A stretch of 64,000 nt of DNA from a phage. The translations under genes and the position numbers were made by a program. The stretch lies in the sequence record PZ256263.1. One strand, written 5' to 3'. Below the pieces are notes generated by a model. That model was not told the origin of the DNA. It saw only the letters and a program-made list of their open reading frames with translations, and ran no database searches. This document shows positions 10,998-38,396 of this stretch, piece by piece. Every line of letters starts with the position of its first letter. Position 1 is the stretch's first letter.

Positions 10998-11073
10998 GCG
11001 CTCTTAGCTCAATGGATAGAGCAGTAGCCTTCTAAGCTATTGGTTACAGGTTCGAGTCCTGTAGGGCGCACCA
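10998..11073 (+). tRNA. tRNA-Arg (anticodon UCU), 76 nt including CCA
   Basis: Hand-folded cloverleaf: acceptor GCGCTCT/AGGGCGC, D-arm GCTC-AATGGAT-AGAGC, anticodon loop CTTCTAA, T-arm ACAGG-TTCGAGT-CCTGT, discriminator A then CCA. Confidence 0.85.
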
Positions 11074-27697: not shown

Positions 27698-29011
27698 ATG
27701 ATTGTTATCCCGATTAACCAAATTGAAGATAAGGTTGCTCAACAACCTGATATCTCTGTTGGTCGTCACTTCATTGAACAGTTGATTAACAACAACTTGA
27801 TTCCAGATGGTATCTGTCCCATCATTACTGGTGGGGCTGTTCGTGATGCTGTCCTTAATAACATAGCTCCACATGACATTGATATCTTTATTGTCAGAGG
27901 ACAAACACCAAGAACTCAAAACACTTTCATCCCAACTGATCGTTGGCAAGAGCTTGGACGGGAGATTGAAAGTAATGTGAAGGAATGGCTAGAGTCACAA
28001 GATATTGAATATGCATCACTTCTTGCTGAAGCTACAAACGAATCCTATGCTGGGGGTTCTCAATTAACATTCACTGATATTATTGAGTTTCAGTGGAATG
28101 GGGTTCGTATCCAATTCATGTTTAATTATCCTACTTCTATTGAAGAGGTATTGGATAATTTTCCTATGATGTGCCGTGGTGCGATGACTCTTGACAACTT
28201 ATTCATGACTTCTCACGGATATTTGGCTATGACTTCCCCTTGTCCAGTGGTTGTCTCTAGTCGTGAAATCAGGTATGTTCACAAGAAGTGGCCTAACTCA
28301 CAAGTGTTGAGATTTTCCTCTCCAGCAGTTGCGCATCAATACATGGCCCAAACTCGATATCTTCCCACACCTCAGCCAGTTAGTCATCTAGTCAATGGAT
28401 TAGGTCAGGTTTCTCTTATTGAAGATACAACAAGTGCTCTATATTGTGTTAACCGAGACATGAGTCGATTCTTTGGAATCCCTTATGAAGAGATTCAGAT
28501 TATGTCTAGTCTTCACGGTTCTGGTCAGATTCATGCGTATTGGTCTGAGGGGTTGACAAATTTAACGACTAACACGGGTGGTGATCTGCTTGGTCGAGAA
28601 GAGGAACCTAACCGACACAATGCAATTGAAGGGGTGTTTGTAGCCCCTGCAATGCGTCGAGCACAAGAGTCACGAAGAGAAAGCCCTACTCGTAGAACAT
28701 CTTTTGAAGAAGCTCTTGGTATTACAAGTGATTCTATGGAGCGATGGATGGCTAGACCCTCTCGTGGTCGACCAAACGGCTTAACTGTTAGCGCACGTCA
28801 GTTCTCTGGTCAGGGTTTCGCTGTTGGTGATATCAACGCACCTGTTAGGGCTGTGTGGGCTGATGAAGATATGGAACAGGATTTGGGAGATAGTCTCGCT
28901 GATCAATTTGTTGCCAACAACCCTGAAGTATTAGAACCTCAAACCCGTACAGTTCGGTTTGCCGATGAAGCGGGTCGTGGAATCTCTTTTGAAATAGACG
29001 AAAATAACTAA
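27698..29011 (+). CDS. Pol-beta-superfamily nucleotidyltransferase-like protein (CCA-adding / poly(A) polymerase-like head), 437 aa
   Basis: N-terminal IITGGAVRDAVL ... DIDIFIV resembles the GGAVRD / DxD head motif of class-II tRNA nucleotidyltransferases; the rest is unrecognised. Confidence 0.45.
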   Translation: MIVIPINQIEDKVAQQPDISVGRHFIEQLINNNLIPDGICPIITGGAVRDAVLNNIAPHDIDIFIVRGQTPRTQNTFIPTDRWQELGREIESNVKEWLESQDIEYASLLAEATNESYAGGSQLTFTDIIEFQWNGVRIQFMFNYPTSIEEVLDNFPMMCRGAMTLDNLFMTSHGYLAMTSPCPVVVSSREIRYVHKKWPNSQVLRFSSPAVAHQYMAQTRYLPTPQPVSHLVNGLGQVSLIEDTTSALYCVNRDMSRFFGIPYEEIQIMSSLHGSGQIHAYWSEGLTNLTTNTGGDLLGREEEPNRHNAIEGVFVAPAMRRAQESRRESPTRRTSFEEALGITSDSMERWMARPSRGRPNGLTVSARQFSGQGFAVGDINAPVRAVWADEDMEQDLGDSLADQFVANNPEVLEPQTRTVRFADEAGRGISFEIDENN

Positions 29012-29020
29012 GGAATAAGA

Positions 29021-29554
29021 ATGGGTTTACTAGGAAGTATTGAACTGCACGATGTAATTGACAATGGTTATCTGGGTGCGGAGCATAAATATGTTAACGC
29101 TGCTAGTGTGGATATCCGTATTGGTGATACTATCCTTGTTGAAGAACAGGCTGATGGCATCGTTGATATTGATGCGAAAGAGAATCTTCAGTGGAAGGAA
29201 GTAAAGATTCCTGAAGAAGGTTTGGTTATCACTCCGGGTCAGTTCTTCTTGGCTCACTCTATGGAGGAGTTTAATCTTCCAGATAACATCTCAAGTCTGT
29301 TTGTTCTGCGTTCGTCTATGGCTCGTTGTGGTTTGAACCACCTTCACGCCGGTTGGGCAGATGCAGGATTTAATAGTAGTAAGCTGACATTTGAATTCCA
29401 TAACGTAACCAAGCACCACAGCTTACGAGTTCGTGCTGGTATGCGTGTTGGTCAGATGGTTATGTTTGAGCACTCTCATGCAGGGGAACATTCCTACGCA
29501 GTGAAGGGTCGTTATAATAACTCTGAAGGTGTGGTTGCATCTAAAGGTGTGTAA
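29021..29554 (+). CDS. dcd: dCTP deaminase (dUTPase-superfamily)
   Basis: AASVDIRIG, LRSSMARCGL, DAGF, GMRVGQMVMFE align by eye with Dcd. Confidence 0.75.
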   Translation: MGLLGSIELHDVIDNGYLGAEHKYVNAASVDIRIGDTILVEEQADGIVDIDAKENLQWKEVKIPEEGLVITPGQFFLAHSMEEFNLPDNISSLFVLRSSMARCGLNHLHAGWADAGFNSSKLTFEFHNVTKHHSLRVRAGMRVGQMVMFEHSHAGEHSYAVKGRYNNSEGVVASKGV

Positions 29555-30242: not shown

Positions 30243-30569
30243 ATGTTAGATTTGAGTAAAGTGGCCCCGCCCACTGAAGAGATTACAAAATCCAAGGTGA
30301 TGCAACAGTTTTATCATCGTGATATGCTTGGTCGCTTTATCAAGAATCGTGATGTTGTTGCTTGGTCTATTGGTAATCAGGGATATCTGTTGAAGGTTCT
30401 TCAGGTTACAGGTTCAACTGCTAAGCGGGTTAAGGTGTATGACCCTGAAATGGGGCGTTCTAAGTCAGTAGACCCACAGAACTGCATCGTAATTACCCAG
30501 CAGGTGATAGCAAATCTAGAAAGAAATGTAGCAAACTCTACTGAGTTAGAAGGAGAAGACCCTAAGTGA
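30243..30569 (+). CDS. Hypothetical protein (108 aa)
   Basis: GGAGAGAG RBS. Confidence 0.5.
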   Translation: MLDLSKVAPPTEEITKSKVMQQFYHRDMLGRFIKNRDVVAWSIGNQGYLLKVLQVTGSTAKRVKVYDPEMGRSKSVDPQNCIVITQQVIANLERNVANSTELEGEDPK

Positions 30570-31060
30570 TTCCAAAGGAATTGGAAGGGAAGATTGATGT
30601 AACAGAAGATGGTAGAGTATTTACTATAAAGAGTGGAAGGTTTTTAACCCTCCACACTAATGGTGCCTATTACAGAGTTACTATTTACTTTCCTGAAGGA
30701 TTAAAGAATTTCTATGTCCACAGGCTGGTTGCTAGTAAGTACATACCGAACCCTGATAATCTTCCATGTGTCAACCATAAGGATGGCAATAAACTCAACA
30801 ATCATAAAGATAATCTTGAATGGTGTACCCACCGAGAAAACTCTCAACATGCATCATCATTAGGTCTGATGGTACAGAGGTTTGGAGAAGACAATCCACA
30901 GTCTAAACTTACTCTAGAAGATGTAGAGTACTGTAGGAGAGTTTATATCCCTCGAGATAAAGAGTTTGGAGGCTCTGCCCTTGCAAGACGTTTTGGTGTC
31001 TCTCAGCAAGTGATATCAAAAGTTCTACTTAATCAAACTTGGAGGGAATATAATGCATAA
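30566..31060 (+). CDS. HNH homing endonuclease (164 aa)
   Basis: NHKDGNKLNNHKDNLEWCTHRENSQHA HNH signature plus C-terminal HTH-like region. Confidence 0.8.
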   Translation: MIPKELEGKIDVTEDGRVFTIKSGRFLTLHTNGAYYRVTIYFPEGLKNFYVHRLVASKYIPNPDNLPCVNHKDGNKLNNHKDNLEWCTHRENSQHASSLGLMVQRFGEDNPQSKLTLEDVEYCRRVYIPRDKEFGGSALARRFGVSQQVISKVLLNQTWREYNA

Positions 31061-31616
31061 GAATGTCTTTGATTTACCTGAGATTGGTCGTGTCGAATAC
31101 AATATGTTAGACCGATCTGAGCTTTCAATCTCTCGTCTTGAAACGATGCAGGGTATGATTAGCGGAAACAGCCTAGAACACATCCTGAGCTGCTTACAAG
31201 CTAACATGGAACTCTTGCATATCAAAGCTAAAAACTACCACTGGAACGTCTCTGGTGCAGGATTTCAGGGTGTTCATGGTATGTTTGATGAGCTGGAAGA
31301 TTACGCACGACAGGTAGGAGATCGTATTGCTGAACGTATGCGTTACCACTGTGTTAAAGTGGATGCTACAGCAGCTAACTACCTCTCTCATGCTTGGTTC
31401 TCAGAGGGTAATGCTGATCTGGACATGGACGGTATGCTCTCTGATATGTGCATGACCTTGATGTGTATTATTGAGAAGATGGATGAGTTTGATGGTGATT
31501 TAGCCACCTACCCTGTCGATCAGAGTATGCTTCAAGAAATTAATGAAGGTCTTGGCAAGTATTGCTACTTCGTCAAGAGCAACATGTCCCATTCAAGTGG
31601 TGACGTGTCTTACTAA
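31053..31616 (+). CDS. Dps-like ferritin-fold protein (187 aa)
   Basis: HIKAKNYHWNVSGAGFQGVHGMFDELEDYARQVGDRIAERM matches the Dps ferroxidase-centre signature by eye. Confidence 0.65.
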   Translation: MHKNVFDLPEIGRVEYNMLDRSELSISRLETMQGMISGNSLEHILSCLQANMELLHIKAKNYHWNVSGAGFQGVHGMFDELEDYARQVGDRIAERMRYHCVKVDATAANYLSHAWFSEGNADLDMDGMLSDMCMTLMCIIEKMDEFDGDLATYPVDQSMLQEINEGLGKYCYFVKSNMSHSSGDVSY

Positions 31617-31865: not shown

Positions 31866-32141
31866 ATGTCTAAAGTAATTAAGTTTTATAGTGATCAGTG
31901 TGCTCCATGTAAAGCAATGGCTCCTACCTTTGAGAAGGTTGTTAAGGAGTTTGATGTAGAAGTGGAAGAGATTAACATCCTTGAAGGTGATGGTCGTGAA
32001 CAAGCTGTTAAGTATGGTGTACGAAGTATCCCTGCTTTCGTTGTGCCTGACCGTAACAGTGGTGCACACTACAGCCTCTCCGGTATGCAGACTGAAGCAA
32101 ACCTGAAAGCATTTTTGGACACAGCCCTGAGAAATAAGTAA
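31866..32141 (+). CDS. Thioredoxin-fold protein (CAPC active site), 91 aa
   Basis: FYSDQCAPCKAMAP active-site region and thioredoxin-like length. Confidence 0.7.
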   Translation: MSKVIKFYSDQCAPCKAMAPTFEKVVKEFDVEVEEINILEGDGREQAVKYGVRSIPAFVVPDRNSGAHYSLSGMQTEANLKAFLDTALRNK

Positions 32142-36551: not shown

Positions 36552-38396
36552 GTGAGCAACCCGGACGCTCTCCCATTTTTGACAGAGATGACTGTCGCTG
36601 ATATAATCTCTAAGCAAGCAAAGCACGGAGTGAGTTTCAACCGAAGAAATGCTCGGTGGTATGTTCACCTCCTTAAAGAGATTATTGTTAATATTGACAA
36701 AGAACTGATTCCTCTCTTACCTAAGATGAGATTAGATGGCTCAACTTATATGAAGCCGTTTAAGAAGTCTGGAGCTTTACAGAAGTGGCCTCAAGCCTAT
36801 TGCGATAGAGTTGGCCTCAAGAGAGAAGACATTGGTGGAGCATTCACCTGTGTCGAGTACGTAGACTTTGACCCATCGAAAGATGCACGAGTTAAAGAAG
36901 CCCTTATGGATGAGGGTTTTCTTCCTCCAGAGTTTAACGTATCTAAAAAGCCTTGGAACACTTTCGAAATTAAGAAAGACATGCGAAAGTATGGAACATA
37001 CCAAGCATGGTACACCGCTTGGATGCGAGGCAATGCTAAACAGAAACAGACAGCCGAGATGGTTGACGCTGATATTAAGAAGTTCTTAGAGAAACACTTT
37101 AGGTTCAAGACTAAGAACTACATGAAGGCTTATGTGTTTGGTTTGGGATTAAACCCTAACCGACGTAACCCTGTAACATTTGACGAGATTAAGAAAGCAC
37201 TAGCTACCTCAAACAAGTGGCCTACAGCTCCTACAAACCTCGAGGAGACTCTTGAAGAAGGGTTAGGGGGTGAGCTAGGGAGTGTCGGAAGTTTGCTTAA
37301 GAGACGTGTTGTAGCGGCTCACAGGCTAGGTCTTATTAGTGGACTTATAGCAAAGGAGCGCGAAGATGGTAAACTTTCGGCAGAAGCTAACAGCTGCGCT
37401 ACGCCGACTTTTCGATTCAAACATCGTATCGTGGTTAATATTCCCTCCCGTGGTTTGTTTGGTCATGAGTGTCGCAGTTTGTTTGAGTCTGACTATAACT
37501 CAGATGATGATCACTCTCGTCCTTTCGTTATTACTAACGTTGTTCCTGATGGTTGTTATATACGAAAAGGTACTAACGTAATTTATGAAAAAGGTAAGCC
37601 GGGGAAGAAAGATAAGCCTGTAGGTGCTTACAAATATTACATACCCGCTGGTAAAGAAGTATTCTTAGGGTATGATGGTTCTGGATTAGAGTTGCGTATG
37701 CTTGCACACTACCTCATTAAAGAGTGTAGAGATATGCTTGCTGAAGCAATAGAAGAAAACAATCCAGCTAAGAAAGCTCTGGCAGAACGTGGTTTAGCTT
37801 CTGCTATTATGTATCGTGATATTCTCCTTGAAGGTGATATCCACTCTCACAACCAGAAACTTGCTGGTCTTCCTACTCGTGACAACGCTAAGACATTTAT
37901 CTACGCATTCAACTATGGTGCTGGTGATGCTAAGCTCGGTTCAATTGTAGGTGGTGGGGCTGACGAAGGTTCAGTGATGCGAGCACGTTTCTTGGCAGAG
38001 AACCCGTGTATTGCAATCCTCATTGATCGTATGACAGAGAAAGCTGCTCAAGGATACTTGATTGGTGTTGATGGTCGTAAGATTACAATGAGACGGGATG
38101 CCACTGGTAAGGTTATGGTTCATAAAGCACTTAACACCCTCCTGCAATGTGCTGGTGCTGTTGTTATGAAATATGCTATGATGTTCCTTAACAAGTGGAT
38201 TGAGAGAGATGGGGTTCGTTGTGCTAAGGTAATTGATATGCACGATGAGGGCCAGTTCTCAGTGAACCGTAATGATGTACAGAAACTCAAAGAACACACC
38301 GAGCTTTGTGTTAAGAAGGCTGGTGAGTATTTGAACATGGAATGTCCTCTGGCATCTGATTGTCAGATTGGACTTAACTGGATGCATACACACTAA
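36552..38396 (+). CDS. Family-A DNA polymerase, polymerase-domain subunit (614 aa)
   Basis: Motif A LGYDGSGLELRMLAHY, motif B RDNAKTFIYAFNYGAGDAKLG, motif C VIDMHDEGQF; no exonuclease motifs in this ORF. Confidence 0.85.
   Translation: MSNPDALPFLTEMTVADIISKQAKHGVSFNRRNARWYVHLLKEIIVNIDKELIPLLPKMRLDGSTYMKPFKKSGALQKWPQAYCDRVGLKREDIGGAFTCVEYVDFDPSKDARVKEALMDEGFLPPEFNVSKKPWNTFEIKKDMRKYGTYQAWYTAWMRGNAKQKQTAEMVDADIKKFLEKHFRFKTKNYMKAYVFGLGLNPNRRNPVTFDEIKKALATSNKWPTAPTNLEETLEEGLGGELGSVGSLLKRRVVAAHRLGLISGLIAKEREDGKLSAEANSCATPTFRFKHRIVVNIPSRGLFGHECRSLFESDYNSDDDHSRPFVITNVVPDGCYIRKGTNVIYEKGKPGKKDKPVGAYKYYIPAGKEVFLGYDGSGLELRMLAHYLIKECRDMLAEAIEENNPAKKALAERGLASAIMYRDILLEGDIHSHNQKLAGLPTRDNAKTFIYAFNYGAGDAKLGSIVGGGADEGSVMRARFLAENPCIAILIDRMTEKAAQGYLIGVDGRKITMRRDATGKVMVHKALNTLLQCAGAVVMKYAMMFLNKWIERDGVRCAKVIDMHDEGQFSVNRNDVQKLKEHTELCVKKAGEYLNMECPLASDCQIGLNWMHTH

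Follow-up and report, generated by a model that had tools for sequence, protein, structure and literature searches.

We have analysed a window of 64,000 nucleotides of phage DNA (sequence record PZ256263.1) that derives from a Kuravirus, a phiEco32/SU10-like Escherichia coli podophage of the Gordonclarkvirinae, and we describe here a nucleotidyltransferase (NTase) gene that lies within the replication operon and is read in the same direction (Table 1). We find that the encoded protein has a nucleotidyltransferase domain of the pol-beta/class II type, and profile comparisons place it, as a stand-alone enzyme, in a phage-specific, Gad2-like branch of the lineage that comprises the class II CCA-adding enzymes and poly(A) polymerases. 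The genes run in the order primase/helicase, exonuclease subunit, NTase and dCTP deaminase, followed farther on by those for a ferritin-like protein, thioredoxin and ThyX. Between 27000 and 29600 the identity to Escherichia phage ev_rybdy3, whose annotated 'nucleotidyltransferase' is 100% identical to the window NTase, is 99.5%; for SU10, ES17 and other Kuraviruses it is 94-99%. The ATG at 27698 is supported as the start codon because 25 of 25 members of the NTase family, down to ~25% identity, share the same initiator methionine (in the context 'MI.IP'), and it is the annotated start in every deposited record; an upstream GTG at 27641 was considered as the start and is ruled out on both counts. 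A scan for promoters and terminators around the gene returned nothing above chance.

Table 1. The NTase gene, its parts and other features of the window; residue numbers refer to the NTase.
Feature	Position	Strand	Remarks
NTase coding sequence, complete	27698..29011	+	ATG start, 437 codons plus TAA (open reading frame list, translation)
Folded NTase core, residues 1-235	27698..28402	+	class II-like head and first neck-like helices
GGAVRD, residues 45-50	27830..27847	+	first half of motif A, nucleoside triphosphate (NTP)-binding turn; aligns on GGAVRD of CCA enzymes
DIDIF, residues 60-64	27875..27889	+	DxD catalytic carboxylates of motif A; aligns on DVDV/DIDI (CCA enzymes) and DVDIYF (Gad2)
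Q139	28112..28114	+	Gln of the 'IQxM' strand, invariant in the family alignment; common with Gad2 Q88
FPMMCRGA, residues 155-162	28160..28183	+	counterpart of Gad2 FDFTVCMGA and class II (RR)DFTINA (hhalign)
PVVVSSREIRYVHKKWP, residues 183-199, helix motif	28244..28294	+	common with Gad2 (FPIVSLLRVQKYTDKEY) and class II EDPLRvlRvaRF (hhalign, Gad2 column conservation)
Variable linker, residues 236-295	28403..28582	+	predicted local distance difference test (pLDDT) 46-66
Short motif W282-S-E-G-L286 in linker	28541-28555	+	pattern kept in nearly all family members
Predicted disordered C-terminal tail, residues 296-437	28583..29008	+	pLDDT 24-36, indel-rich, weakly constrained
3'-5' exonuclease subunit of split family A DNA polymerase	27139..27696	+	Pfam DNA_pol_A_exo1, E=2e-8
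dCTP deaminase	29021..29554	+	Pfam DCD, E=5e-34; 9 nt past the NTase stop
tRNA-Arg(TCT) gene, sole tRNA gene	10998-11073		encodes its own 3' CCA (...GGGCGC-A-CCA)

A sequence-only reading of this stretch had singled out a GGAVRD...DxD signature of class II enzymes near the N-terminus, and this is borne out by Pfam, by profile searches of the PDB, by structure comparison and by profile-profile alignment. The Pfam model PolyA_pol, which describes the class II head, matches residues 43-124 and places motif A correctly (E=0.0022, 18.8 bits), though below its gathering score of 23 bits; homologues of the NTase score 13.5-21.9 bits. When profiles of the family were compared with PDB sequences, class II CCA-adding and A-adding enzymes ranked top (best E=0.0021), with GGAVRD...DID falling on the GGAVRD...DVD of these enzymes; below them came just isolated weak matches to unrelated proteins. 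The profiles put both halves of motif A at the expected catalytic positions. An AlphaFold2 model based on 42 homologues has high confidence from residue 1 to ~240 (pLDDT mostly 80-94), and in a Foldseek search of the PDB the first 35 matches were all class II enzymes (E from 3e-5), with 200-250 aligned columns at ~14% identity. Alignment of the family with class II enzymes by hhalign gave E=2e-6, with reversed-sequence controls scoring at most 25. We consider the GGAVRD motif to be meaningful, beyond chance. Indeed, none of the residues G45, G46, R49, D50, D60, D62 and F64 varies among 25 family members at ~25% identity, and because the two glycines, R49, D50, D60 and D62 have been kept over this distance we infer that the NTase is catalytically active.

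The ~370 residues that follow motif A had been set aside as one unrecognised block; they divide instead into the rest of the NTase core (to ~240), a variable linker and a disordered tail. Residues 65-240 complete the core in the AlphaFold2 model, with a long helix (residues 80-100) inserted after the DxD strand and a beta-hairpin (residues 125-146) that bears the invariant Q139. The Gad2 glutamine aligned to Q139 is conserved, with a glutamate in one Gad2 homologue, and Q139 may be the counterpart of the class II third carboxylate, although the hhalign columns around the candidates for this position (E130, Q139 and E99) have low confidence. Farther along, F155, P156 and C159 are conserved in the family, and a helix that reads S187-R-E-I-R-Y-V-H-K-K-W-P contains, in the motif of residues 183-199, the invariant Y193 and K197, with the acidic ED pair absent. 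An early guess that 'REIRY' (189-193) replaces the EDxxR of class II enzymes is ruled out, as the profile alignment puts R189..R192-Y193 on the class II 'R..RF' helix. Beyond the core, nearly every family member has a '[WYF]-[ST]-x-G-[LR]' motif close to its C-terminus; the shortest members have it too, and end there. Disorder is predicted for about residues 285-437 (~150 residues), and the composition of the tail is mixed, with a basic stretch at ~317-360 and an acidic end.

The function preferred in the sequence-only reading was that of a phage tRNA 3'-end (CCA) repair enzyme acting against host tRNA-targeting defences. Class II motif A and the class II-like head fold would suit such an enzyme, as would the tRNA gene in the same genome, which is indeed present, but this gene lies ~17 kb from the NTase gene and encodes its own CCA. 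Mapping through the Gad2 and class II hhalign alignments shows that the position of motif B (RRD) is occupied by L-D-N, in the stretch L-D-N-F-P-M-M-C, and that it varies among genera (AAT, SRR). In motif D (EDxxR) the E-D positions correspond to P181/C182, before P183, by profile alignment rather than superposition, and of this region the downstream R..RY helix alone has been kept. No trace of the class II body and tail domains that bind tRNA was found, there being no Pfam match beyond residue 124 and structural alignments stopping at no more than ~250 columns, and the C-terminus is instead disordered. NCBIfam models for CCA enzymes or PcnB gave no match to the window NTase, and a Pfam search of it did not find the neck/body RNA-binding domain of poly(A) polymerase I (PAP I; PF12627). 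With genuine tRNA nucleotidyltransferases of phages (phrog_2244, 392 aa) the similarity is confined to motif A (E=0.025), and the NTase evolves much too fast for a housekeeping repair enzyme (see below). The motifs B and D, the architecture and the sub-threshold Pfam score together rule out membership among the CCA-adding enzymes or poly(A) polymerases, and we regard a role in tRNA 3'-end repair as very improbable. The alternative offered alongside it, a novel nucleotidyltransferase, is nearer the truth, except that the family has already been catalogued (phrog_12715, GenBank, PMC4281155).

The closest characterised relatives of the phage NTase family, as judged from profile comparisons, are the Gad2 anti-defence enzymes. 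Gad2 is the second anti-defence protein described against Gabija, a 400-aa predicted nucleotidyltransferase of SPbeta-like phages; its deletion makes the phage Gabija-sensitive, and the SPbetaL7 protein is toxic when expressed in bacteria (bioRxiv 10.1101/2023.05.01.538930). A 2026 preprint reports that the NTase gp22 of the T7-like phage Emajogi, encoded beside the primase/helicase, is cytotoxic, and that some homologues are annotated 'Gad2 family'. Precomputed Pfam assignments carry PF26128 'Gad2' on 29 of 44 close homologues of the window NTase, and mark it as weak for one of them (P0002); the exact sequence of the window NTase has no entry among these records. For our own comparisons, namely an ad hoc hidden Markov model (HMM) and profile-profile alignments, we used Gad2 and the seven homologues listed in the supplement of Yirmiya et al. 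With hhalign, the profile of the Kuravirus family aligns with Gad2 at a probability of 89% (E=2.3e-6) over 124 collinear columns, spanning residues 36-199 and Gad2 25-161, with reversed-sequence controls at a probability of at most 4%. The alignment with class II enzymes scores the same, yet covers just 62 columns around motif A. The residues matched with Gad2 are G45-G46/AGG, D60-D62/DxD, Q139/Q88, F155/F105 and C159/C110, and further G161-A162/G112-A113, P183/P145, R189/R151, R192-Y193/K154-Y155, K196/K158 and W198/Y160. Of the Gad2 motifs, which read AGG, DxD[YF]F, a Q strand, FD[FY]T..GA and [FY]P...R..[KR]Y..[KR]G[YF], most are present in the window NTase, an exception being the invariant D of FD[FY]T. 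A set of small phage NTases is intermediate between the two: by hhalign the Kuravirus family matches them at 99.1% (E=4e-19), and they in turn match Gad2 at 99.3% (E=1.5e-20) and class II enzymes at 96.3% (E=2e-9). Since the direct score against Gad2 is no better than that against class II enzymes, the case for the relationship rests on these intermediates and on the shared motifs.

At the level of annotation nothing here is new. The protein is a full-length match to phrog_12715 'nucleotidyltransferase' (E=1.2e-244, residues 1-437 on profile positions 1-457), and this label is present in many GenBank and RefSeq records, in about 100 Kuravirus-like genomes. The class II motif was already pointed out in the 2014 SU10 paper (PMC4281155), and the BASEL paper remarked on the NTase beside the dCTP deaminase, speculated on DNA modification, and noted for the Gordonclarkvirinae an unusual degree of resistance to restriction and defence systems for which no cause or modification is known (PMC11990801). 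Our literature search found no functional study of the phrog_12715 NTase and no paper that connects Gabija with Kuravirus. Among isolated phages the family is restricted to the Gordonclarkvirinae (98 records, all of Escherichia or Shigella phages except three named only 'phage' or 'Phage'), and an HMM search through the full set of 1.84 billion cluster representatives returned only 31 proteins at E<1e-10. A search of the BFVD for the fold recovered, besides the NTase family, only one protein from a T7-like Aeromonas phage, and a search of IMG/VR for related loci gave four, two of which are known phages. The next relatives are phage NTases of ~200 aa belonging to phrog_1614, 7967, 4400 and 10174, the first of which the window NTase matches at E=1.6e-7. 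Members of phrog_1614 occur in 391 phage records, mostly of Autographiviridae, where their genes overlap those for primase/helicase, ligase or PolA (Warsawvirus 3MF5, Aarhusvirus Katbat, phiKMV-like LKD16); one, in Salinivibrio CW02, lies near an exonuclease subunit gene. We also note that the HMM search of cluster representatives turned up a predicted protein of 1455 aa (P0092) in which a class II NTase head/neck unit occurs four times in tandem, every copy matching residues ~4-205 of E. coli Cca; this protein is an unusual fusion or else an artefact of assembly.

The setting of the NTase gene is highly conserved. It had been described as inserted after the exonuclease gene, and it does adjoin that gene, but there is no sign of an insertion: the position is fixed and tight in every relative examined, and three genera have the same gene order, as do metagenomic relatives with an NTase of just 29-35% identity. 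The stop codon of the exonuclease gene lies 1 nt before the NTase ATG, and in relatives the junction is a spacer of 0-2 nt or a 4-nt overlap; so short a junction suggests that the two genes are translationally coupled.

The protein itself, in contrast to its neighbours, diverges rapidly. We compared amino-acid identity and non-synonymous divergence (dN) with Nieuwekanaalvirus/Suseptimavirus, and the ratio of dN to synonymous divergence (dS) within Kuravirus. The primase/helicase is 94-95% identical (dN 0.04, dN/dS 0.00-0.005), as is the dCTP deaminase (dN 0.03-0.04, dN/dS 0.03-0.045), and the exonuclease subunit is 80-86% identical (dN 0.09-0.15, dN/dS 0.03-0.15), whereas for the NTase core (residues 1-235) identity falls to 37-39% and dN rises to 0.65, so that the NTase evolves ~16 times faster than its neighbours (0.65 versus 0.04) and is the fastest-evolving gene of an otherwise nearly frozen replication operon. 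The core is nevertheless under selection, as its dN/dS of 0.07-0.13 indicates. The tail (residues 296-437) cannot be aligned between genera and, with a dN/dS of 0.52-0.70, evolves nearly neutrally. Within Kuravirus the dS of the core is 0.45-0.77, 2-5 times higher than the 0.15-0.28 of the flanking primase/helicase, exonuclease and dcd genes, and that of the tail (0.23-0.28) is below that of its own core. The raised dS of the core suggests that alleles may have been exchanged by recombination, with breakpoints inside and around the gene (27698-28402 versus 25355-27696 and 29021-29554).

Several features of the surrounding genes deserve mention in their own right. The family A DNA polymerase is split into the 185-aa exonuclease subunit (27139-27696) and a 614-aa DNA_pol_A protein (36552-38396) encoded ~9 kb and ~25 genes away. 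Fission of exo and pol genes has been described in T7-like PolAs (PMC10201439), in a paper whose main text does not contain the name 'phiEco32'. A phage-encoded thioredoxin (31866-32141) lies beside ThyX. The polymerase of T7 uses host thioredoxin as its processivity factor and, by analogy, the phage thioredoxin may serve the split polymerase. The ferritin/Dps-like protein (31053-31616; Pfam Ferritin, E=2.5e-7) carries inconsistent public labels, either 'DNA binding protein' or 'integrase'. Between it and a 108-aa open reading frame lies one for an HNH_3 homing endonuclease (30566-31060, 164 aa) that the closest relative, ev_rybdy3, does not have there. In other relatives HNH_3 directly follows the dCTP deaminase (L023, 4862-5371), and SR02 probably also has it there, with the C-terminus of Dcd altered. 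Just upstream of the replication genes is a cluster (19155-25135) encoding an amidoligase (Amidoligase_2), a class II glutamine amidotransferase, an ATP-grasp-like protein and a gamma-glutamyl cyclotransferase (GGACT), which is kept in distant relatives; its ATP-grasp-like protein, of 400 aa, is annotated as RimK-like and gave no Pfam match here.

How might such an enzyme serve the phage? The reading we favour, to which we give about an even chance of being right, is that the NTase is a working enzyme of the Gad2 kind that counters defence or is otherwise directed at the host. Besides the Gad2 link, the divergence of its core between genera, the toxicity of SPbetaL7 Gad2 and of Emajogi gp22, and the unusual resistance of the Gordonclarkvirinae speak for this reading. 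The predicted enzyme would transfer a nucleotide from a (d)NTP to an acceptor, which would not be a tRNA measured by body and tail domains, and its use to the phage, as with Gad2, would be against the host or its defences. Possible targets are ends of nucleic acids, or intermediates of replication, of the kind sensed by nuclease-helicase immune systems, and its tail could carry short motifs for docking to partners. The position in the operon, which the phrog_1614 relatives share, could be a matter of timing, or else of a substrate found at DNA ends or in replication intermediates. A broader form of the idea, in which a Gad2-type factor nucleotidylates DNA ends, replication intermediates or a host sensor and thereby blocks Gabija-like nuclease-helicase systems, strikes us as rather unlikely in its full extent. 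We nonetheless consider that the NTase is more likely to help the phage evade bacterial immunity than to repair tRNA ends.

Several observations weigh against a Gad2-like role. The ad hoc HMM of eight Gad2 sequences gives the window NTase 2.8 bits, which is not significant, and other members of the NTase family 12-24 bits, and the hhalign probability against Gad2 (89%) is, as noted above, matched by that against class II enzymes. The invariant aspartate of the Gad2 FDFT motif corresponds to Pro156, one residue being deleted there, and the structured C-terminal half of Gad2 (~240 aa) is without a counterpart. The mechanism of Gad2 is, according to a 2026 review (PMC12904381), still unsolved. 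Gad2 is encoded in an anti-defence locus of temperate SPbeta phages and the window NTase in the replication operon of a virulent podophage, a position that could equally indicate a role in replication; the experimental record of the NTase, moreover, is one peptide in a lysate proteome.

A role in replication is one alternative. The NTase might be a template-independent terminal transferase or a small gap-filling enzyme, a housekeeping part of a T7-type replisome that works on the 3' ends of phage DNA, on Okazaki primers or on terminal repeats, with the tail as a tether to the polymerase or helicase. Its invariant slot between the primase/helicase and exonuclease genes on one side and that for dCTP deaminase on the other, held down to ~30% identity, and the overlap of phrog_1614 genes with replication genes would fit this, and loss of the ribose-discriminating RRD would permit the use of dNTPs. 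Against it stands the rate of divergence, the core replication proteins of the operon being 94-95% identical between genera and the NTase 37-39%. Housekeeping parts of replisomes do not usually diverge so strongly. In addition, the family is tiny, with only the 31 proteins noted above among the 1.84 billion cluster representatives, and T7 itself does not have this gene; we thus view a housekeeping replication role as doubtful. Divergence bears in the same way on the hypothesis of the BASEL paper, that the NTase and the adjacent dCTP deaminase make a non-canonical base that protects against restriction. The two genes do adjoin one another in a block for nucleotide metabolism, and the Gordonclarkvirinae do resist restriction-modification with no known modification (PMC11990801), but one would expect an enzyme of biosynthesis to show the conservation of Dcd and ThyX, which are 95-98% identical, and not the 39% of the NTase. 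Dcd and ThyX together, moreover, form an ordinary route of dTTP supply. We know of no described phage DNA hypermodification pathway with a class II-type NTase, which also counts against this explanation, and we judge it decidedly improbable.

It is also conceivable that the NTase has a poly(A)-polymerase-like activity and tails host or phage transcripts, marking them for decay or stabilisation during takeover. Like PAP I it is extended at the C-terminus by a disordered segment that includes a basic stretch (residues 317-360), and its relatives Gad2 and Emajogi gp22 are cytotoxic; the neck/body domain with which PAP I binds RNA is, however, absent, and we think the idea improbable. Finally, the NTase fold could be a catalytically dead scaffold, a binding module for a tail that is the functional part. 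Where a third carboxylate would be expected, the candidates are Gln139 or a variable E130 rather than an invariant acid, and motifs B and D have been lost, yet the invariance of the G-G pair, R49, D50, D60 and D62 in 25 members is typical of a maintained active site and it is the tail, not the core, that is weakly constrained. A dead enzyme is thus highly unlikely.

What the present analysis adds is that the tRNA-repair reading fails its defining tests, that the family groups with Gad2, and that its rate of change contrasts with that of the operon. If the link to Gad2 holds functionally, easily handled virulent E. coli phages (BASEL Bas89-93, among them the 97% identical Bas90) could show what Gad2-type enzymes modify, and could help explain why Kuraviruses that are candidates for therapy shrug off many host defences. 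If the NTase does nucleotidylate DNA ends or a host sensor, this would explain part of the resistance of the Gordonclarkvirinae to restriction and defence, and would provide a tractable E. coli model for the mechanism of Gad2.

The window NTase does not differ structurally from its own family, the phrog_12715/GenBank 'nucleotidyltransferase' of the Gordonclarkvirinae (SU10 CDS74, phiEco32, KBNP1711). With the class II tRNA nucleotidyltransferases and PAP I (PF01743; PDB 1MIV, 3H37, 3AQL) it shares a motif A, GGAVRD...DxD, that is nearly letter-identical, and an 'R..RF'-type helix kept as R189..R192-Y193, but it is without their motif B RRD, motif D ED and body/tail domains, and has a helical insert of ~35 residues after the DxD strand. 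The small phage NTases of phrog_1614 (Pseudomonas phage 3MF5 gp22 and LKD16 gp16, Dickeya phage Katbat gp21, Salinivibrio CW02 gp33) belong to the same superfamily (hhalign of the window NTase family with T7-like NTases gave 95.5%), are likewise encoded among primase/helicase, ligase and PolA genes and likewise have a function known from annotation alone; they differ in being proteins of 180-200 aa without a tail, in forming a separate PHROG family, and in being encoded upstream of the primase/helicase rather than downstream of the exonuclease. Gad2 and the window NTase, for their part, both have a phage-encoded core derived from the pol-beta/class II fold with A-G-G...D-x-D, both keep the Q strand, F..C.GA and P...R..(K/R)Y..(K/R).(Y/W), and both have lost the RR and ED residues of class II enzymes. 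They part where Gad2 has the aspartate of FDFT and the window NTase a proline, and where a structured C-terminal half in the one is replaced by a disordered tail in the other.

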